Shown here one piece after another: positions 26,093-56,826 of a stretch of 64,000 nucleotides of DNA. Positions within the stretch are counted from its first letter, which is position 1. Every line of letters begins with the position of its first letter. Location of the stretch: IMG/VR virus record IMGVR_UViG_3300020432_000004. One strand, written 5' to 3'. A program made the translations under genes and the position numbers. A model generated the notes under the pieces. That model ran no database searches and had not been told where the DNA came from. It saw only the letters and a list, made by a program, of their open reading frames with translations. The DNA is from a virus (taxonomy: Duplodnaviria > Caudoviricetes).

Positions 26093-27123
26093 TGCTAGGA
26101 ACATACGCTTACCACGAAATATTCAGAAAGACCATTGTTGGTTTTGGAACTCTCTTCAATAATATTGAATTGAGAAGACAGAATGAGGTTATGAAAGTTC
26201 CTCTTGCATATGGTCCTAAACAAAAATTCTTAGCACGTTTAGATCAAAACCCTGATCCTACAAATAAAAGAGTACAAATAACATTACCTAGAATTTCTTT
26301 TGAAATTGCAGGTATGAGTTACGATCCTACAAGAAAAGTATCTCCTACTCAAAAGATAAAGATATCAAAAGACGTAGATGAAAATTATAATACTTACATG
26401 CCAGTTCCATATAATTTAGATTTTGAACTAGCAATTATTTCTAAGAACCAAGATGATGGTCTACAAATTTTAGAACAGGTATTACCTATATTCCAACCTC
26501 ATTATAATCTACCAGTCAAGTTATTGTCTGCAATGAAAGAGATAAAGGATGTTCCTGTAGTTCTACAATCTATAGACTATGAAGATGATTATGAGTCAGA
26601 CTTTACTTCTCGTAGAGCAATCATCTATACACTAAGGTTTACTGCAAAAACATATCTATACGGTCCTGTTACAGAACACAAGATCGTCAGAAAGGCAAAA
26701 GTCGATTACTATTCATCTACAAATACAACTACAGCACCAAGACAGGTTCGTTATACTACTACACCAGAGGCATGGACTGATAAGGATGGAACTGTAGTAA
26801 CTACCTTGTCTGCTAATATTACTGCTGCAACTACTAACATTCCAGTTGCAAGTGCAACAGGTGTTGCTAAGTGGGATGATCTTTATATTGGTAGTGAGCA
26901 GATGAAAGTTACTGGTATAACAGGTAATACTGTTCATGTACAAAGAGGTCGAAATGGAACTGTAGCAGCAACTGCAGTAGGTGGAGCAAACGTATTTAAA
27001 CTTGATGCAGCTGATGACGCATTAGTCACTGCTGATGATGATTTTGGTTTCAATGAAACTACATCATTCTTCCAAGACATGAAGAAATACAACCCTGTGA
27101 GTGGTCAAGATGAATCCATTTGA
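26092..27123 (+). CDS. gp15: Tail sheath stabiliser/terminator gp15
   Basis: FGTLFNNI, VPLAYGPKQKFLAR, TLPRISFE, PVPYN, QILEQVLPIFQP. Confidence 0.95.
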   Translation: MLGTYAYHEIFRKTIVGFGTLFNNIELRRQNEVMKVPLAYGPKQKFLARLDQNPDPTNKRVQITLPRISFEIAGMSYDPTRKVSPTQKIKISKDVDENYNTYMPVPYNLDFELAIISKNQDDGLQILEQVLPIFQPHYNLPVKLLSAMKEIKDVPVVLQSIDYEDDYESDFTSRRAIIYTLRFTAKTYLYGPVTEHKIVRKAKVDYYSSTNTTTAPRQVRYTTTPEAWTDKDGTVVTTLSANITAATTNIPVASATGVAKWDDLYIGSEQMKVTGITGNTVHVQRGRNGTVAATAVGGANVFKLDAADDALVTADDDFGFNETTSFFQDMKKYNPVSGQDESI

Positions 27124-27538
27124 AGGACTAGATAAGACTTTCGGAACTGAACCTTCCGAACTTAAAAAACATGTAGAAAAGGTAAAACCATCACTAAAGA
27201 AAAGTGAGCAAGAGGACATAGTAAAAGACTATGAAGCATCTCGTGCTCAACTACATAACTTAGTGATGAAAGGACAGGAGGCAGTCGATGGAATACTTGA
27301 CGTGGCAAGAGCGTCAGATCATCCTAGAGCTTATGAAGTGGCAGGTCAACTTATTAAAAATGTAGGTGATGTTGCTGATAAGTTAATTGATCTTCAATTA
27401 AAAATAAAAGAATTAGATAAAGAGGAGAAGAAAGGACCTACGAATGTTACTAATGCCATGTTTGTAGGTAGCACATCGGATCTTCAAAAAATGTTAAAGG
27501 CACAAAAGAACATAAATAAAGATACTGAAACAACATAG
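27110..27538 (+). CDS. gp16: Terminase small subunit gp16
   Basis: DYE..RAQL..L..KGQEA, SDHPRAYEVAGQLIK, FVGSTSDLQKML; probable start is the ATG at 27110. Confidence 0.93.
   Translation: MNPFEGLDKTFGTEPSELKKHVEKVKPSLKKSEQEDIVKDYEASRAQLHNLVMKGQEAVDGILDVARASDHPRAYEVAGQLIKNVGDVADKLIDLQLKIKELDKEEKKGPTNVTNAMFVGSTSDLQKMLKAQKNINKDTETT
27511..27518 (+). promoter_or_regulatory. Late promoter CATAAATA inside the gp16 3' end
   Basis: NATAAATA upstream of the 27547 ORF. Confidence 0.7.
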
Positions 27539-27546
27539 ACACGACA

Positions 27547-28083
27547 ATGACAGTACTTAATGTATTAAGCACTAACACTATAGCAGCAGGAGCAACTGAA
27601 TATCAGGTGATCCAGACTGGATTCTATAGAGTTGGTTCCACTGCAGGTGCAGCAACTGTAACCTTTGGTAGTGGTCCTGCAATCACACTTGTGCAGAATG
27701 AGTTCATTCTTGTAAAAGGTGGTAAGCCAGGTCAAGCACAAATTATAAAGGCAGTCTCAGATTCTACTGGAGATTACTTTGTTGGACAACATCTACAAGA
27801 TAGTTCTGCCAACCATCCATTCTCTGTAGGAGATTTTATCGCTGTTGTAGATAACGGTACTAGTCCTTCCATAGACAGTAACTTCTTATCAGCAGGAACG
27901 GCAGGTAAAAAAATAACTGCTGCAAATAATGTTAATATGTTAAGCACAGATATTGATTCATCAAGTGCGTCTGCTGATTATACATATTCATCAGGCAATA
28001 AAGCACTAGTTCAACGCTGCGTAAAAATCGCTGCTGCTACCAGTGCGGTTATCGTAGAAGAAGTGCAAGTAGTTGGTGGGTAA
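27547..28083 (+). CDS. Hypothetical protein, probably virion structural
   Basis: Late promoter upstream; beta-rich A/T/G composition. Confidence 0.6.
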   Translation: MTVLNVLSTNTIAAGATEYQVIQTGFYRVGSTAGAATVTFGSGPAITLVQNEFILVKGGKPGQAQIIKAVSDSTGDYFVGQHLQDSSANHPFSVGDFIAVVDNGTSPSIDSNFLSAGTAGKKITAANNVNMLSTDIDSSSASADYTYSSGNKALVQRCVKIAAATSAVIVEEVQVVGG

Positions 28084-28916
28084 TGGAAACCTGTAAAAAG
28101 GGACAATACTATTGTAACACTGATAAAAAGTGTAAACCTATTCCTGATGGACATACAGTTCGTGAAGATGGGTTTCTAGTGAAAGAGGCGAAGAAGTACT
28201 ACGGTGGTAAGAACACTAAACCTAAAGGGTTTGGAACTGACCAACGAGGACCTATCAATCAAGAAGCGGAACGTATTGTTCGTGGTATGAAAGCGAAGAG
28301 TGCAGGTCGTTTTAAAAAATTATATGGGAAACGTGATAAGGAAGTAATGTATGCTACCGCTAACAAGTTGGCACAAAAAGAACAATTAAAAGTTATGTAT
28401 TATCAGGATTTCATCAAATTAGTAGAAGGTAATCCTACAACACGTATGTTAACTAAGTCTAAGACAAAACAGACTGGTAATATAAGTGCTGATAGGGGAT
28501 CTGATGAGAAAACAAATCGAGAAAAACGCAAAGGTCTCGAAAAAGATTTAAAGAAAAAAGGCATTGGTTACAAAAAAGGTGTAGGAGAGTATAAATACAA
28601 ATCCGATGATGGCAAAGAAGGTACAGGTCGTGAGGTTACATACCAAACAAGTCCTGGCAAAGGAATGTCAAAACGTAGATTCGGAAAAGTAATGCGTCGT
28701 TTAGGACGCAAGCATGGTCAAGAGTCAGTCATTACAAAAGACAAAGACAAACCTGCAAGACTACACGATACACAAAGTAAAAAACCAGGCAAATCTGCAA
28801 ATCTAGGGAAATCCAATCCAGGTAAAAATCCAAAGGGCGAAGGCGAGACATCAGGAACCAAAATTAGAAGTGGAAAATTACCAAAAACAAACAAAAAAGC
28901 GTATCACTACAATTAA
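28083..28916 (+). CDS. Lys-rich protein with C-terminal SAM-lyase-like domain
   Basis: ISADRG...N.....L..DL....GVGEY...REVTY...RLGRKHGQESVI pattern; N-terminal CKKGQYYCNTDKKC motif. Confidence 0.5.
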   Translation: METCKKGQYYCNTDKKCKPIPDGHTVREDGFLVKEAKKYYGGKNTKPKGFGTDQRGPINQEAERIVRGMKAKSAGRFKKLYGKRDKEVMYATANKLAQKEQLKVMYYQDFIKLVEGNPTTRMLTKSKTKQTGNISADRGSDEKTNREKRKGLEKDLKKKGIGYKKGVGEYKYKSDDGKEGTGREVTYQTSPGKGMSKRRFGKVMRRLGRKHGQESVITKDKDKPARLHDTQSKKPGKSANLGKSNPGKNPKGEGETSGTKIRSGKLPKTNKKAYHYN

Positions 28917-29020: not shown

Positions 29021-29045
29021 ATTGTGTAATGGAGTTGAAACTATC

Positions 29046-29267
29046 ATGTCCCACTACACGGTTGGTTACCATAATAACCTAAATCAGCATTTTGAAATAT
29101 GCGAGTACGCCGATACCGCATATGACGCAATAGAACACAGTAAAGAGGATGTCTCGTATCTACACGAGCATCCTTCTTTTATTGATTATTGCAAACAAAT
29201 TCCAATCCGAACAGAGGTAGATAACGTCTTCCTTTCTAGGGCATGTGGAATACCAATGGGGTGTTAA
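29046..29267 (+). CDS. Conserved-looking small hypothetical protein (MSHYTVGYH...)
   Basis: GGAG SD upstream of ATG 29046; downstream of the late promoter. Confidence 0.7.
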   Translation: MSHYTVGYHNNLNQHFEICEYADTAYDAIEHSKEDVSYLHEHPSFIDYCKQIPIRTEVDNVFLSRACGIPMGC

Positions 29268-29269
29268 CT

Positions 29270-29374
29270 ATGAAAAATTTACCAATAACATCCTCGTTAA
29301 TTATCTTTGTAACTATAGGCACAGCACTATGGTTTTATCCCCAATACGCTTGGGCACATCCTATATTAGTATGA
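29270..29374 (+). CDS. 34-aa membrane peptide (not in ORF track)
   Basis: MKNLPITSSLIIFVTIGTALWFYPQYAWAHPILV; its stop overlaps the PTOX start (ATGA). Confidence 0.6.
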   Translation: MKNLPITSSLIIFVTIGTALWFYPQYAWAHPILV

Positions 29375-29871
29375 AAAAATTTAATACATGGGTCTTGGAT
29401 ACTACAATCTATATCCTTGACTTTCTCTACAGAGGTAGAGACTTCCAGAGGTTCTGGGTTCTAGAGGTGATAGCAAGAGCACCTTACTTTTCATTTATCA
29501 GTGTGTTACATTTTCGTGAATCATTAGGACTTAGAGGAGAAGAACACATATACTTAATGAAGGAGCACTTCTATCAAGCATTAAATGAGACCGAGCATCT
29601 GGAGGAAATGGAGACTAGGGAGGGCAATAAGTACTGGATTGATCGGTTCTTTGCCAAGCACCTTGTTCTGGTTTATTATTGGATCATGGTTGGGTATTAT
29701 CTCATTGATCCTGTTAACGCTTATGACATCAACATGAAGATAGAGAAACATGCATACGAGACATATACAAAATATAGTGCATGGCATCCAGAAGATAAGA
29801 AGATAGCAGAGATAGCAGAAGACGAATTGAAGCATGCAAAAGAACTACACCACGCAATGTCAATGATATGA
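29371..29871 (+). CDS. ptox: Plastoquinol terminal oxidase (AOX/PTOX di-iron family)
   Basis: RFWVLEVIARAPYFSFISVLH, NETEHL, EKHAYETY, EDELKH; real start is most likely ATG 29371, not 29245. Confidence 0.95.
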   Translation: MKKFNTWVLDTTIYILDFLYRGRDFQRFWVLEVIARAPYFSFISVLHFRESLGLRGEEHIYLMKEHFYQALNETEHLEEMETREGNKYWIDRFFAKHLVLVYYWIMVGYYLIDPVNAYDINMKIEKHAYETYTKYSAWHPEDKKIAEIAEDELKHAKELHHAMSMI

Positions 29872-30237: not shown

Positions 30238-30640
30238 TAGAGTTGTTGATGGTGATACCATTGATGTTTCAATAGACTTAGGATTTGATCTTATTAAAAA
30301 AGAAAGAGTACGCGTAGCAGGTGTTGATACTCCTGAGAAGAGAACTAGAGACTTAGAAGAAAAAGCATTAGGTATTGATGCTACTAACTGGATGAAGAAA
30401 AACTTAGAGGAAACTTTAGATGGAGATGAGGAACTTACTATCAGAACCGAACTCGTCGGTGGCATGGGTAAGTATGGTAGGCTTCTTGGTTGGTTATATG
30501 TCGGGGATGATGATGTATCACTTAATGAAAAAATGATTGATGAAGGATATGCATGGGCATATGATGGTGGTACAAAACAGAAAAATTTTGAAGAGTTGAG
30601 AGAGATAAGAAGATCAAAAGGAACTTTACTTGAGGGATAA
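30176..30640 (+). CDS. SNase/thermonuclease-family endonuclease
   Basis: RVVDGDTIDV, RVRVAGVDTPE, GKYGRLLG, LN..MIDEGYA. Confidence 0.9.
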   Translation: MGAMVPPSRKSCYNFRVVSIDRVVDGDTIDVSIDLGFDLIKKERVRVAGVDTPEKRTRDLEEKALGIDATNWMKKNLEETLDGDEELTIRTELVGGMGKYGRLLGWLYVGDDDVSLNEKMIDEGYAWAYDGGTKQKNFEELREIRRSKGTLLEG

Positions 30641-32289
30641 TGGCACAACAGGAAGTATACTTAGGTAATCCTAATCTTAAAAAAGCAAACGTTTCTCAGA
30701 ATTTTACTAAGAAACAAGTTGCTGAGTATTTGAAATGTGTAGAAGATCCTATCTACTTTATTAGAACATATATTAAAATCGTTTCACTAGACGAGGGTAT
30801 CATACCATTTAAGATGTATGATTTCCAAGAGAGTATGGTAGGTAAGTTTCATAAACATAGATTTAATATTGCTAAGTTACCTCGTCAGTCTGGTAAATCA
30901 ACAATCGTTACAGCATATCTATTATGGTATGTGCTATTCAATGATAATGTAAATGTCGCAATCCTCGCAAACAAAGCCCCAACTGCAAGAGAAATGTTGG
31001 GACGCTTACAATTATCTTACGAGAATCTTCCTAGATGGTTGCAACAAGGTATCTTGGGGTGGAACAAAGGAAGCTTGGAGTTGGAGAACGGAAGTAAGAT
31101 CCTCGCTTCAAGTACTAGTGCTTCTGCTGTTCGCGGTATGTCCTTTAACATTATATTTCTGGACGAGTTCGCGTTCGTTCCGAATCATATTGCTGAACAG
31201 TTCTTTGCTAGTGTGTATCCTACTATATCTTCTGGTAAAAAAACAAAAGTTATTATTATTTCTACACCTCATGGGATGAACCAATACTATAAGTTATGGC
31301 ACGATGCTGAACGTGGTGCTAATAACTATGTTGCAACTGAGGTTCATTGGTCTCAAGTACCTGGCAGAGATGCTAAATGGAAACAACAAACTATTGAGAA
31401 TACATCTGAAGCACAGTTCAGAGTTGAGTTTGACTGTGAGTTCTTAGGATCTGTTGATACTCTTATATCTCCTAGTAAATTAGGTGCTATGCCATATGAT
31501 GATCCTATTAAACAAAACAGAGGTCTAGCAATATATGAAGAAAGAATAGAAGATCATAATTATATTGTAACTGTTGATGTATCTCGTGGTATTGGTGGTG
31601 ACTACTCAGCATTCTGTGTTGTAGATACTACAACCATACCTTACAAATTAGTTGCTAGATATAAAAACAATGAAATAAAACCAATAGTCTTACCTAATAT
31701 TATTGTTGATGTATGTAAACATTATAATAATGCATATGTTCTATGTGAGGTAAATGATATAGGTGGACAGGTAGCAGACATCATTCAATATGATTTGGAA
31801 TATGAGAATCTATTAATGGCTGCTATGCGTGGTAGAGCAGGTCAACAACTAGGACAAGGTTTCTCTGGTAAGAAAACACAACTTGGTGTGAAGATGAGTA
31901 CTGCAGTTAAACAAGTTGGTTGTTCTAATCTTAAGGCATTAATAGAAGATGATAAATTATTAGTTACAGATTATGACACTATATCTGAACTGACTACATT
32001 TATTCAGAAAGGTCAATCATTCCAAGCAGAAGATGGATGTCATGATGATCTTGCTATGTGTCTTGTTATTTTTGGATGGATGGCAATGCAAGAATACTTT
32101 AAAGAGATGCATGATAATGATGTCAGAGCAAGAATATATGCGGATCAAAGAGATGCTATAGAACAAGATATGGCTCCATTTGGATTTATTAATGACGGAT
32201 TAGAAGATGATGTTATTGTTGATGCACAGGGAGAAAGATGGGAACTCGCGGAATATGGTGATGTTCAACACATGCTTGACTTTAGGTGA
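30640..32289 (+). CDS. gp17: Terminase large subunit gp17
   Basis: YLGNPNLK, PRQSGKST (Walker A), IFLDEFAF (Walker B), IISTPHG, DVSRG, HDDLAM. Confidence 0.97.
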   Translation: MAQQEVYLGNPNLKKANVSQNFTKKQVAEYLKCVEDPIYFIRTYIKIVSLDEGIIPFKMYDFQESMVGKFHKHRFNIAKLPRQSGKSTIVTAYLLWYVLFNDNVNVAILANKAPTAREMLGRLQLSYENLPRWLQQGILGWNKGSLELENGSKILASSTSASAVRGMSFNIIFLDEFAFVPNHIAEQFFASVYPTISSGKKTKVIIISTPHGMNQYYKLWHDAERGANNYVATEVHWSQVPGRDAKWKQQTIENTSEAQFRVEFDCEFLGSVDTLISPSKLGAMPYDDPIKQNRGLAIYEERIEDHNYIVTVDVSRGIGGDYSAFCVVDTTTIPYKLVARYKNNEIKPIVLPNIIVDVCKHYNNAYVLCEVNDIGGQVADIIQYDLEYENLLMAAMRGRAGQQLGQGFSGKKTQLGVKMSTAVKQVGCSNLKALIEDDKLLVTDYDTISELTTFIQKGQSFQAEDGCHDDLAMCLVIFGWMAMQEYFKEMHDNDVRARIYADQRDAIEQDMAPFGFINDGLEDDVIVDAQGERWELAEYGDVQHMLDFR

Positions 32290-36967: not shown

Positions 36968-37303
36968 ATGCCAAGCGAAATAGCACAAGGAATCGTCGAT
37001 CATATATTTGGCGATGAAAAAGCAAAAGCGGTAGATGCATTTAACGATGCAATGGCTGCTACAGCTTATGATGCAATACAAGCTCAGAAAAAAGAGTTTG
37101 CACAAAAAATGGGTTTTGAACTAGATCAAACTGCACAATCTGCAGCTGATGAACTAGAAGATAAGTTAGTAGATGACGGATCTGGTGAAACTAAGGTTGA
37201 ACCTGTCTTACCTGACAGACTACCACATGAACCACCTGTTGATGCTACACCTGCATCTGTAGAAGAACCAATAGAGGAACCAAAAAATGAGACTGATAGC
37301 TGA
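36968..37303 (+). CDS. Acidic small protein, probable prohead core component (gp67/68 position)
   Basis: Between gp20 and gp21; acidic; CTAAATA upstream. Confidence 0.55.
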   Translation: MPSEIAQGIVDHIFGDEKAKAVDAFNDAMAATAYDAIQAQKKEFAQKMGFELDQTAQSAADELEDKLVDDGSGETKVEPVLPDRLPHEPPVDATPASVEEPIEEPKNETDS

Positions 37304-37931
37304 AGAGATCACTCAAGTTGATTTCCTAACTGAGGAAAAGAACGGAAAGAAGTCACACTTCATAGAAGGTATTTTCTTACAATCAGAGATCACTAATAAG
37401 AATGGAAGGATGTATCCTTTCAAAACACTTCAGAGAGAAGTCGCTAAGTACGAAGAGTCACAGATCAGAAAAGGTCGTGCACTTGGAGAACTTGGACATC
37501 CAGATGGTCCTTCAATCAACCTAGATAGGGTATCCCATAAGATAGAATCTTTGAGAGAAGATGGAAATAATTTCGTCGGTAGAGCAAAGATACTTGACAC
37601 ACCTATGGGTAACATTGCATCATCACTACTAAGTGAAGGTGTAAAGTTAGGAGTTTCTTCAAGAGGAATGGGTTCTCTGAAGAAAGAATCTAATTGCAAC
37701 ATAGTCCAAGATGACTTTATGCTTGCAACTGCTGCTGATATAGTAGCAGATCCTTCAGCACCAGACGCATTTGTGAATGGTATCATGGAAGGAAAAGAAT
37801 GGGTATGGGACAATGGAGTTATTAAAGAAGCAAGAATAGCGGAAATTAAGAACGAAATTGATCATGCAACCCTTATAAATTTACAGGAAAAGAAGCTTTC
37901 CGCATTCGAGAAGTTTCTTAAGAGTCTGTGA
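37287..37931 (+). CDS. gp21: Prohead protease gp21
   Basis: NKNGRMYP, ALGELGHP, GVSSRGMGS, DIVADPSAPDAFV. Confidence 0.97.
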   Translation: MRLIAEEITQVDFLTEEKNGKKSHFIEGIFLQSEITNKNGRMYPFKTLQREVAKYEESQIRKGRALGELGHPDGPSINLDRVSHKIESLREDGNNFVGRAKILDTPMGNIASSLLSEGVKLGVSSRGMGSLKKESNCNIVQDDFMLATAADIVADPSAPDAFVNGIMEGKEWVWDNGVIKEARIAEIKNEIDHATLINLQEKKLSAFEKFLKSL

Positions 37932-37978: not shown

Positions 37979-39079
37979 ATGTCTGAGACCTCTAATAAAG
38001 AGTTAGATAACATGGAGCAAGTGAAAGAAGACGCAGCAACTGGAACAGCAGCTATCACTAAAGGTGCGACTTCTGGAGAAAAGATTGATACTTCTCAAGG
38101 TAAGTACACTGATATCGGTGGTTCTGATAGTAAATCATCAGAAGGTGCTAAGGGAACTGAAAATCTAGGAAGCAAAGCTGCAGCCCCTGTAGGAGTAGAA
38201 GGTGATAAGTCTATCAAGACTAAACCATCAGCTGCAGGAACATCTAACGTAAGTGCAGGTCTTAGTGGTAAGATCTTCGATGACGTGGAGAACAAAGATG
38301 AAGAAACAATCCAAGAACAAGAAACAGAGACAGCAGATGAAGCCAAGTACGACTTTACTGCGGATGTTGACGCTCTTGTCGGAGGTGAAGAACTATCAGA
38401 AGAGTTCAGAGACAAAGCAGTAACCATCTTTGAAGCCGCAGTCACCTCAAGAGTAAATGAGGAAACTAAAGCGTTAACTGAAGCATTTGAATCTACTCTG
38501 ACTGAGGAAGTCGAGAAGATCAAAACAGAATTGGCTGAAAAAGTCGATGACTATCTATCTTATGCTGCTGAACAGTGGATCAAGGAAAATTCACTCGCTG
38601 TTGAGCACGGTATAAAGACTGAGATGGCAGAGTCATTCTTTAACGGTCTAAAAGGTCTCTTCGTAGAGCATAACTTTAATGTTCCCGAAGAAAAATACAA
38701 TCTCCTAGACGGAATGTCAGGGGAACTTGATGAAATGGAGAAAAAACTCAATGAGCAAATCGACGCTAACGTATCTTTGAACAAGAGAATTGGCGAATTT
38801 GTTAAAATGGAAATCGTGAACGAATGTGCTGCAGGTCTCGCAGAGACACAAAAGGAGAAACTAGTTTCTCTTGCAGAGGGTGTTGAGTTTGAGAATGAAG
38901 AAGACTATCGCAAGAGAGTCGAAACAATTAAGGAATCATATTTCACTAGGAAGGCTGAAGTTGCTGCAGAATCTGCAAAAACTGAACCCACCGAAGAAAG
39001 TTCAGAACCCTTAGTTGAAAGTACAGCAAGCGGAACTATGTCGAAATACGTAGATGCAATCGCTCGTTGGTCCAAATAA
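37979..39079 (+). CDS. gp22: Prohead core scaffold gp22
   Basis: LSEEF..KA.TIFEAAV, KVDDYL.Y..EQW..EN, L.ETQKEKL.SLAEGVEF. Confidence 0.95.
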   Translation: MSETSNKELDNMEQVKEDAATGTAAITKGATSGEKIDTSQGKYTDIGGSDSKSSEGAKGTENLGSKAAAPVGVEGDKSIKTKPSAAGTSNVSAGLSGKIFDDVENKDEETIQEQETETADEAKYDFTADVDALVGGEELSEEFRDKAVTIFEAAVTSRVNEETKALTEAFESTLTEEVEKIKTELAEKVDDYLSYAAEQWIKENSLAVEHGIKTEMAESFFNGLKGLFVEHNFNVPEEKYNLLDGMSGELDEMEKKLNEQIDANVSLNKRIGEFVKMEIVNECAAGLAETQKEKLVSLAEGVEFENEEDYRKRVETIKESYFTRKAEVAAESAKTEPTEESSEPLVESTASGTMSKYVDAIARWSK

Positions 39080-55388: not shown

Positions 55389-56005
55389 AAAAGATAGGAA
55401 TATTTCCAACAAATATCTTTGAGTTTCAATTACATGATCTCCAACTTCGGGATGATGTCTATAGTTATATTGACACTCTTAAGATGAGTCGGTTTAACTT
55501 TCCACATAGAGTCATGAGTTCTCATGGTGATCTTCATAAACACGAAGAACTTAAACCATTGTATGATTGGTTTCATCAGTGTTTAGAAGAGGCAAGAGTA
55601 GCAGAAGGATTACAATGTGAAAGTTTAAAGATATCATTGTCATGGGCAAACTGGGCACCTAAACAATCTGGTGCAGGTCACCCAATGCATAGACATAACT
55701 ATGCGTACTACTCTGCTGTATATTATCTTACAGAAGGATCACCTACAGTCTTTTTAGATCCTGTAGATATTAGAGGGTTAGATACTCTTGAAATATTACA
55801 GGGAGATAGAGAGAGTGTTCCTAATGAAAAAGAAATAGTTGCAGAACCTGGTAAACTAATTCTATTTCCTGGTTGGTTAAGACATTGTTCAGCACCACAT
55901 CATCAGGACTTTAATAGATTTACTATATCATTCAACAGTCTTCCTGATGGTGCCATTAACGGTGGTCCTGGTGGAGTTCCAGTTGCAACCTTGAAAATAT
56001 TATGA
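55385..56005 (+). CDS. Putative 2OG-Fe(II) oxygenase (TIGR02466-like)
   Basis: W.N...HPMHRH..SAVYY, LILFPGWLRH, RFTISFN. Confidence 0.8.
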   Translation: MKKIGIFPTNIFEFQLHDLQLRDDVYSYIDTLKMSRFNFPHRVMSSHGDLHKHEELKPLYDWFHQCLEEARVAEGLQCESLKISLSWANWAPKQSGAGHPMHRHNYAYYSAVYYLTEGSPTVFLDPVDIRGLDTLEILQGDRESVPNEKEIVAEPGKLILFPGWLRHCSAPHHQDFNRFTISFNSLPDGAINGGPGGVPVATLKIL

Positions 56006-56826
56006 TGAAAACTCCATTGCGTTATCCTGGTGGCAAATCTCGTGCCACAAAAAAGATAGCACAATTTCTTCCAGATCTTACAAAGTATAAATCATATCAT
56101 GAACCATTCTTAGGAGGTGGGTCTGTTGCATTATACATTGCTCAAACTTATCCTCACCTAGACATCTGGGTGAATGATCTATATACACCATTAATAGAAT
56201 TTTGGCAAACCCTAGCATCCAAAGGAGATGAACTCTACAATGAACTTATTCAACTTAAATACAGGCACTGTGAACCTGGGTCTGCTAAACAACTTTTTCT
56301 CGAAGCTAAAGAGTATCTCGATAGAGAAACCTCAACCACATTTGATCGCTCCGTTAGTTTTTATATTGTTAATAAGTGTAGCTTTAGTGGTCTCACAGAA
56401 TCGTCCTCCTTCTCCCCTCAAGCCTCAGACAACAACTTCACAGTTAGAGGCATTGAAAAATTAAAATACTATAGGAGTATCATTGAAACTTGGAAAATCA
56501 CCAACACGACGTACGAGGAACTATACACTGATAGTGTGGGCACTTTTACTTACCTTGACCCACCTTATGAAATCAGATCTTCATTGTACGGAAAGCGAGG
56601 TAGGATGCACAAAGGATTCGATCACGATAAATTCTATGAAAACTGTGATCACTCCTGTGGACACATGATGGTATCATATAATAGTTCTCAGTTAATTAAA
56701 GATAGATTTGTAGACTGGGATGCACAAGAGTACGATCACACCTACACTATGAGATCAGTAGGTGACTACATGAAAGATCAACAAGACAGAAAAGAATTAC
56801 TTTTATTAAATTATGGCATACGATGA
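56002..56826 (+). CDS. dam: DNA adenine methyltransferase (D12/Dam class)
   Basis: PLRYPGGKS, EPFLGGGSV, VND, YLDPPY. Confidence 0.92.
   Translation: MMKTPLRYPGGKSRATKKIAQFLPDLTKYKSYHEPFLGGGSVALYIAQTYPHLDIWVNDLYTPLIEFWQTLASKGDELYNELIQLKYRHCEPGSAKQLFLEAKEYLDRETSTTFDRSVSFYIVNKCSFSGLTESSSFSPQASDNNFTVRGIEKLKYYRSIIETWKITNTTYEELYTDSVGTFTYLDPPYEIRSSLYGKRGRMHKGFDHDKFYENCDHSCGHMMVSYNSSQLIKDRFVDWDAQEYDHTYTMRSVGDYMKDQQDRKELLLLNYGIR

Follow-up and report, generated by a model that had tools for sequence, protein, structure and literature searches.

Why would a T4-like cyanophage place a gene resembling that of an S-adenosyl-L-methionine (SAM) lyase among its structural genes, and where would such an enzyme act? 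We addressed these questions for the open reading frame (ORF) at 28083..28916 on the plus strand of IMG/VR virus record IMGVR_UViG_3300020432_000004, a stretch of 64,000 nucleotides (hereafter the window) that represents the structural-gene region of a T4-like cyanomyovirus from marine metagenomes. A previous sequence-only reading of the window had noted a SAM-lyase-like domain in a late, internal-head-protein-like gene and suggested that its product is packaged, processed and ejected in order to deplete SAM on entry. The ORF is real, its translation giving 277 amino acids, and the strings quoted from its C-terminal domain are all present (ISADRG at residues 134–139, GVGEYKY at 166–172, REVTY at 183–187 and RLGRKHGQESVI at 206–217). 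The protein is also as rich in lysine as described (19.5% Lys, isoelectric point (pI) 10.1). On balance, we regard as the best explanation a precursor that is made late, packaged into the head, trimmed by the gp21 protease and injected as a SAM lyase acting against SAM-dependent defences.

The C-terminal domain (residues 116–277) is very probably a genuine member of the SAM lyase family, as judged from its profile match, the match of its family profile to the PDB, its predicted fold and its conserved ligand and catalytic residues. Pfam family PF23780 (S-AdoMet_lyase) matches residues 134–246 of the whole protein with an E-value of 1.3e-6 and 28.8 bits, and the domain alone with 30.2 bits, the gathering score being 28. 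The same family is matched by all 42 aligned homologues (best E 1e-19), and most close relatives carry the same precomputed family assignment; an exhaustive search yielded 128 relatives (50% clustering). A phmmer search with the window sequence alone against PDB sequences gave nothing meaningful and the family profile was required: the top PDB match of the 42-sequence profile is the T3 SAM lyase (7OCK, 8BB1; E 0.014), with the SA.R, N, G.Y, E and Q[DE][SC] motifs lining up in the alignment. An AlphaFold2 model of the domain, calculated on the family alignment, has nine strands and two long helices, with a mean predicted local distance difference test (pLDDT) of 89.2 and a predicted template modelling score (pTM) of 0.83. 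This agrees with the published description of the T3 enzyme as a monomer, a barrel of nine strands flanked by two outer helices (T3 study), and the predicted model has the ferredoxin-like core in this T3-type form. A Foldseek comparison, as proposed in the sequence-only reading, returned SAM lyases for every one of the best seven matches to the domain model. That reading was thus borne out on the nature of the domain and on its start at position 28428, which coincides exactly with G116. It had also treated a trimer as part of the fold to be expected, a requirement that does not apply here because the T3 enzyme, the closest relative, is monomeric, unlike the trimeric Svi3-3. As a side observation, gp6 from cyanophage S-CREM2 is matched in its SAM lyase domain by PHROG family phrog_2226 (E 2e-17), whose label 'SAM-dependent methyltransferase' is probably a misannotation.

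The residues expected of an active SAM lyase are in place. In the 42-sequence alignment (full-protein numbering), G168, E184 and Q213 are invariant, and Y170, N145 and S215 are conserved in at least 90% of sequences. The profile alignment places E184 on T3 E68 and Q213-E214-S215 on T3 Q94-D95-C96; the equivalents in Svi3-3 are E69 and Q104-E105-S106. In Svi3-3, only Gly56, Glu69 and Gln104 are strictly conserved, with Tyr58, Glu105 and Ser106 contributing, and T3 Glu68 is the counterpart of Svi3-3 Glu69 (PMC7877911). The E68Q/Q94A double mutant of the T3 enzyme is a catalytically dead form (T3 study). The sequence-only reading had doubted activity on the grounds that the Glu of a G.Y.E pattern was absent. 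This placement was mistaken: the functional Glu of SAM lyases sits about 10 residues after G-x-Y and not within the motif, and here it is the invariant E184 (in GREVTY), 14 residues past Tyr170. The doubt over activity therefore falls away, and from the set of conserved residues we consider it likely that the domain is catalytically active.

Directly ahead of the domain lies a motif that resembles the capsid targeting sequence (CTS) of T4. The T4 CTS, MKTYQEFIAE, is trimmed off by gp21, the prohead protease, whose cuts follow L/I-x-E; CTS residues 4 and 7 serve in targeting, and residues 8 and 10 in processing (PMC8442874, PMC9026906). The corresponding segment of our protein, VMYYQDFIKLVE, reads V104-MYYQDFIKLVE115/G116 (slash, cut site), in which Y107, F110 and I111 are followed by L113-V-E115, the sole L/I-x-E in the entire 277 residues. 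It matches the N-terminus of P-SSM2_114, MRTFQEFLQLCE/G, column for column, and other stand-alone relatives begin with MKTYQEFMLE, MKTFQEFMVE, MKTYQQFIFE, MKTFNEFISE or MKTFNEFLKE. Since the motif matches these N-terminal leaders, the LVE/G site represents the end of a conserved leader. Among the 73 family representatives with enough upstream sequence for the motif to be judged, 40 carry it, either at the N-terminus (15) or internally just ahead of the domain (25), the internal copies being preceded by unrelated N-terminal sequence as long as 600 residues (for example KTYREFIAE/GNRTGRM and MSFKTFIAE/GNPTTRM). E115 is invariant in the full-length alignment A2. In the full-length model, residues 101–116 fall below a pLDDT of 50 between a long helix (57–103) and the barrel, which is consistent with an exposed linker. 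Within the window, the pattern [FY]x[EQD][FY][ILMV] occurs in a long coding-strand ORF in the SAM lyase gene alone.

The presumed processing machinery is encoded nearby. The window contains genes for the gp21 prohead protease, the gp22 scaffolding core protein and gp23; gp22 has 14 L/I-x-E sites in 366 amino acids, and a further four lie within the first 51 residues of gp23, in its propeptide, a pattern expected if the protease keeps a T4-like specificity. By analogy with T4, gp22 is the presumed docking partner of CTS-bearing cargo. The sequence-only reading had pointed to two possible gp21-type sites at module boundaries. One of them, LVE/G (113–115/116), is a canonical L/I-x-E site; the other, LVKE/A (32–35/36), is present but has the non-canonical V-K-E, and too few relatives share that N-terminal module for its conservation to be judged, so that we did not retain it as a second cut. 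From the sequence, we give a cut at E115/G116 an even chance. A leader-like LSFQDFQE inside SSM1_115 of phage S-SM1 fitted the motif poorly and was not used. A full-text literature search combining 'capsid targeting sequence' with 'cyanophage' turned up only a T4 review, and the head-loading mechanism considered here therefore seems undescribed in the literature searched.

The SAM lyase subfamily is also found in large myoviruses whose hosts differ widely, namely Campylobacter phage CP220, Lak megaphages, Microcystis phage Mel-JY01, Paraglaciecola GD virus 1 and Alishewanella phages. The N-terminus of Paraglaciecola GD1 gp48 is MKTFSEFLGE/S, and the leader-plus-lyase unit is thus not restricted to cyanophages.

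Evidence that leader-bearing proteins reach the virion comes from relatives. The T4-like cyanophage S-CREM2 has a published virion proteome of 52 proteins out of approximately 219 ORFs (PMC10665884), among which gp6, described as 'S-adenosyl-L-methionine hydrolase (virion protein)', was detected (Front Microbiol 2023, PMC10665884). Its authors proposed that gp6 enters the host and protects the phage DNA from restriction (PMC10665884). S-CREM2 gp6 is homologous to our domain (37% identity over 120 residues, E 2e-12; PF23780 E 2e-19), and it starts with MKDFDSFLEE. A six-frame scan of the S-CREM2 genome with the pattern x[KR]x[FLYW]xx[FYW][ILMV]xE returned five matches, against zero in the reversed control. 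Four of the five are at annotated ORF starts, those of gp6, gp13, gp14 (a kinase) and gp154 (a cytidylyltransferase), and all four products belong to the virion proteome (hypergeometric estimate for 4/4 among 52 of ~219 ORFs, p ~0.003). S-CREM2 gp12, likewise detected in virions, has LRFASFMAE/A near its N-terminus; gp5, gp7, gp8 (Dam) and gp11 are without the motif and are not in the virion proteome. The same leader heads the T4-GC190 cytidylyltransferase, a cyanophage core protein detected in virions of S-SM1, which starts with MKKFSAFLNE/A in S-SM1, MKKFSAFLKE/A in P-SSM4 and MKSFSQFLTE in P-SSM2. Elsewhere in these three genomes, the strict motif is found only at the start of PSSM2_115, which adjoins the SAM lyase gene of P-SSM2. 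Because of the S-CREM2 proteome, the T4-GC190 leader and the presence of a gp21-type protease with its substrate sites, the leader probably means packaging, and it is reasonably probable, as judged from sequence, that the window protein itself is carried in the virion.

Other leader-bearing genes were noted in passing. T4-GC190 is located at L031:18146-19414 in P-SSM2, from 148256 in S-SM1, from 152192 in P-SSM4 and at L042:609-1469 in S-CREM2 (gp154, MKNFSSFLTE); it recurs in virion proteomes and is probably head cargo too. Further leader ORFs are S-CREM2 gp12, gp13 and gp14 (L037), which comprise a kinase, a large nuclease-like protein and small unknowns, all detected in virions. PSSM2_115 (L005:4016-4276) is an 86-residue leader-bearing gene beside the P-SSM2 SAM lyase.

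The N-terminal half of the protein offers a second connection to the virion. Residues 58–103 form a conserved basic module, predicted to be a single long helix, that is 78% identical to residues 4–48 of S-SM1 SSM1_115 (T4-GC119), a protein found in S-SM1 virions with 13 peptide counts (Sullivan 2010). SSM1_115 occupies the same locus, after gp16 and T4-GC403, and in many cyanomyoviruses the 46-residue module is found at the start of proteins whose C-termini differ (DUF6321). Given that this N-terminal module belongs to a virion protein and that the leader sits internally, our protein looks like the N-terminus of a virion protein fused to a leader-bearing SAM lyase gene that has lost its start codon. 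Residues 1–57 comprise a Cys-rich module (C4, C11, C17 and H24) and a low-confidence linker; they are 59% identical to ORFs of MED4-213 and P-HM1 (tblastn) and have an AlphaFold pLDDT of 45–70. The P-SSM4 orthologue, PSSM4_093, is without this module, which is the window protein's own addition, but over residues 58–277 it is 90% identical and of the same architecture. Other cultured phages that carry the SAM lyase include P-RSM4, S-TIM4, S-SSM5 and P-SSM2. The Cys-rich segment itself (CKKGQYYCNTDKKCKP, 28083-28160) resembles a stretch of S-CREM2 gp15 (CPEGYKWNKKLGKCEP, L037:10344-10832), a protein detected in virions, and the likeness may amount to a small shared knuckle motif.

The surrounding genes place the ORF in a structural, presumably late cluster. 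The order is gp13, gp14, gp15, gp16, a DUF7243 protein, our ORF, small ORFs, PTOX, an SNase-like nuclease and gp17 (Table 1), and the ORF is co-oriented with the gp13–gp16 cluster. The upstream neighbour belongs to T4-GC403, an abundant virion protein with 60 peptide counts in S-SM1 virions (Sullivan 2010, Table S8). Its stop codon overlaps the start of the SAM lyase ORF (TAATG), and the two genes are probably co-transcribed. The sequence-only reading had described the gene as internal-head-protein-like; the locus is not the T4 internal-protein locus and, the leader-like motif aside, there is no sequence similarity to IPI–III. Among named phages, the nearest to the window are P-SSM4, P-RSM3 and P-SSM3 of Prochlorococcus (86–90% DNA identity over parts of the region), and at least 14 runs from about 10 studies contain near-identical DNA. 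In P-SSM3 (HQ337021.1, 6235-6891), the orthologue of the SAM lyase gene aligns in four tblastn pieces with no annotated coding sequence; it may be disrupted, or the record may carry sequencing errors. The PTOX ORF (29245-29871, GTG start, 208 amino acids) matches the PTOX family from residue 43 onward only; translation probably begins at a later codon, and the stretch ahead of it overlaps small ORFs at 29022-29267 and 29243-29374.

Table 1. Features of the SAM lyase locus and related genes in the 64,000-nucleotide window
Feature	Position	Strand	Family match
gp16, small terminase	27101-27538
Late-promoter-like motif CATAAATA, 29 nt upstream of the ATG (27547) of the preceding gene	27511..27518	+
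DUF7243 (T4-GC403), upstream neighbour	27547..28083	+	Pfam PF23891, E 3e-67
Whole ORF, modular basic precursor protein, 277 amino acids plus stop	28083..28916	+
Cys-rich module and low-confidence linker, residues 1–57	28083..28253	+	phrog_30733, E 8e-11
46-residue basic module, residues 58–103, conserved, predicted single long helix	28254..28391	+
Internal CTS-like motif, residues 104–115, predicted gp21 cut E115/G116	28392..28427	+
T3-type SAM lyase domain, residues 116–277, predicted mature cargo, 17.9 kDa, pI 10.3	28428..28913	+
Active-site span: G168, Y170 (G-x-Y), E184, Q213-E214-S215	28584..28727	+
gp17, large terminase	30640-32289
gp21 prohead core serine protease	37287..37931	+	Pfam PF03420 (Peptidase_S77), E 2.5e-34
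gp22 scaffolding core protein	37979..39079	+	Pfam PF25623, E 8e-83
Phage Dam, D12-class N6-adenine DNA methyltransferase, SAM consumer	56002..56826	+	Pfam PF02086, E 7e-28

The late promoter mentioned in the sequence-only reading exists as a motif, CATAAATA, but stands upstream of the preceding gene and not directly before the SAM lyase ORF; it is the probable start of a transcription unit that holds both genes. ATAAATA occurs 14 times in the window, always on the plus strand, and about 10 of these sites lie 8–50 nt upstream of ORF starts. The count of TATAAATA in the window is not above chance overall (6 found versus 6.6 expected), and in these motif counts it is only the strand bias and positions of ATAAATA that are suggestive. 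A scan for sigma-70 promoters and terminators near the gene found nothing above shuffled controls. Near-identical sequence spanning parts of the gene is present in metatranscriptome contigs of at least three studies, which indicates presence only and not start, strand or timing.

Three further details concern these signals. ATAAATA sites are found, for example, at 2042, 7481, 16788, 27512, 29014, 30139, 32302, 37935, 40556 and 51615; their total is below chance expectation, yet the sites look like phage late promoters. One metatranscriptome contig (run X16) begins at 27524, six bases past CATAAATA, a weak hint given that contig ends are no proof of a transcription start. A perfect TATAAATA also lies within the gene (28590-28597), on the E-Y-K-Y codons that include the catalytic Tyr170; it may simply follow from the encoded residues, or it may serve the small ORFs downstream as an internal late promoter.

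Starting from these computed features, we infer a path from late expression through packaging, cleavage and activity to an anti-defence role. The precursor would consist of a Cys-rich module (1–57), a basic helical module (58–103), the CTS-like motif (104–115) and the SAM lyase (116–277). It would be transcribed late, jointly with the gene of the upstream virion protein, and incorporated into the prohead core via the helical module, the CTS-like motif or both. A single gp21-type cut after L113-V-E115 would then leave an 18-kDa, very basic SAM lyase free inside the head, which would be ejected together with the DNA. In the new host, the enzyme would convert SAM to methylthioadenosine (MTA) and homoserine lactone ahead of all phage gene expression, and the depletion of SAM would starve defences that depend on it, such as type I and type III restriction and BREX. 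The phage's own SAM-requiring Dam, the presence of which had been noted in the sequence-only reading and for which we located the gene (Table 1), would act later. Whether counter-defence is the function under selection seems to us evenly balanced.

Several observations weigh against this account. The virion detections concern homologues and not the window protein or its close orthologue PSSM4_093; the cyanomyoviruses of the Sullivan 2010 proteome (S-SM1, S-PM2 and Syn9) are all without a SAM lyase gene, and the S-CREM2 authors warn that abundant soluble proteins may co-purify with virions (PMC10665884). The T4 CTS functions at the N-terminus, but the motif here is internal and shifted, with V in place of the initiator Met and the cut Glu at position 12 instead of 10, an internal and degenerate signal particular to the window protein and close relatives such as P-SSM4. 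The motif could also be a structural element of the enzyme, a possibility that its conservation ahead of the domain fits equally well. Moreover, the promoter assignment is based on a short motif, and the PF23780 score of the window sequence barely exceeds its cutoff (28.8 versus 28). A different reading would make the protein a cytoplasmic SAM lyase that is produced late, stays out of the head and works in the cell that made it, its motif being part of the enzyme or a linker. Such an enzyme could shut off host or phage methylation after Dam has acted, halt SAM-consuming host pathways or serve in the salvage of MTA and homoserine. The enzyme identity supports this equally, as do the restriction of virion detections to relatives and the internal, degenerate nature of the motif, and the gp16–gp17 region is a known hot-spot for cyanophage metabolic genes, with PTOX and a nuclease adjoining. 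What speaks against it is that unrelated enzymes found in virions carry the same leader, that a homologue is within the S-CREM2 virion proteome, that the gene incorporates the N-terminal module of one virion protein and directly adjoins the gene of another, and that the lone L/I-x-E falls exactly at the domain boundary. We therefore regard a purely cytoplasmic role as rather unlikely, albeit one to be taken seriously.

Two further explanations keep the homology to SAM lyases and change what the protein does. If it were a packaged internal head protein that had lost catalysis, serving as DNA-condensing or structural cargo or as a binder of SAM or MTA, its extreme basicity (pI 10.3, 20% Lys), like that of T4 internal proteins, would be accounted for, as would the marginal Pfam score and the few deviations from consensus, such as T186 where most relatives have S. 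However, the key residues of Svi3-3 and T3 (G, Y, E, Q and E/D-S) have all been kept, and across 42 diverse relatives they are invariant or close to it, which argues for selection on the active site and makes loss of catalysis quite improbable. Least probable in our view is that the main action lies in binding and inhibiting host SAM synthetase (MetK), the second activity of the T3 enzyme, and not in SAM cleavage. The T3 contacts with MetK (tail M1–N9, Q103, T104 and T106) are shared only by close relatives infecting related hosts (T3 study), the T3 loop KSQTHTAGL stands opposite KDKDKPARL in the profile alignment, and any counterpart of the N-terminal tail would be lost or exchanged for the propeptide.

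The packaged and injected lyase may be one instance of a wider arrangement. Tentatively, and with somewhat less confidence than for the window protein, we suggest that a general, undescribed head-loading system of the T4 type may exist in T4-like cyanophages and in further marine T4-like phages. In that event, a portable leader M-K-x-F-x-x-F-[LIM]-x-E may mark the SAM lyase, the cytidylyltransferase, the kinase and the nuclease-like protein; longer proteins that contain the leader may be polyprotein-like precursors from which the enzyme is freed by the prohead protease; and the helical module (58–103) may be a second, independent anchor in the head core. If this is true, cyanomyoviruses, among the most abundant viruses of the ocean, inject both metabolic and anti-defence enzymes, the T4 CTS is an ancient and transferable address label that extends well beyond coliphages, and a simple sequence motif could serve to forecast which proteins uncultured marine phages inject.

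In T3-like podoviruses, SAM lyases are known as counter-defence enzymes that are expressed early, and the slow entry of its genome gives T3 the time for this. T4-like phages deliver their whole genome quickly, and a ready-made enzyme carried in the head would therefore be an equivalent solution for fast entry, comparable to T4 IPI* against a type IV nuclease. The quantities involved are small: a cell of ~0.1 fL with 100 µM SAM, both assumed values, holds ~7,000 SAM molecules. By the same back-of-envelope calculation, a few tens of enzyme copies turning over at ~10 per second, the Svi3-3 value (PMC7877911), would clear this pool in seconds.

The role of the T3 SAM lyase against type I restriction and BREX is established, and T3 gp0.3 (7OCK, 8BB1) has the fold predicted for the window domain, at ~15% sequence identity. 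T3 gp0.3, however, is made from the first early gene during slow genome entry, whereas the window gene lies in a presumably late virion cluster and encodes, unlike T3 gp0.3, a very basic precursor with modules resembling head-targeting elements; the MetK-binding residues of T3 are not recognisable in it by profile alignment. With Svi3-3 (6ZM9, 6ZNB) it shares the ferredoxin-like core and the set comprising Gly56, Tyr58, Glu69 and Gln104-Glu105-Ser106, of which Q-E-S is kept exactly. The T4 internal proteins are likewise small and very basic, with leader aromatics three residues apart followed by [ILM]-x-E and a gp21-type protease, and IPI* is the precedent for an injected anti-restriction protein. 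Their mature parts are nonetheless dissimilar to ours, and the cargo here would be a cofactor-removing enzyme and not a nuclease inhibitor; in addition, the window motif is internal behind 103 residues, with its Glu two positions later. A further parallel is S-CREM2 gp6, which has a homologous domain and is encoded by a T4-like cyanophage. It differs in carrying its leader at the very N-terminus, in its 240-residue C-terminal extension and in its location in an early-looking region beside Dam instead of the structural cluster, and the paper describing it is silent on the leader and on any loading mechanism (PMC10665884). A virion-associated SAM hydrolase in a T4-like cyanophage is thus already known from S-CREM2 (PMC10665884); the new point here is the T4 CTS-like motif ahead of the SAM lyase domain.

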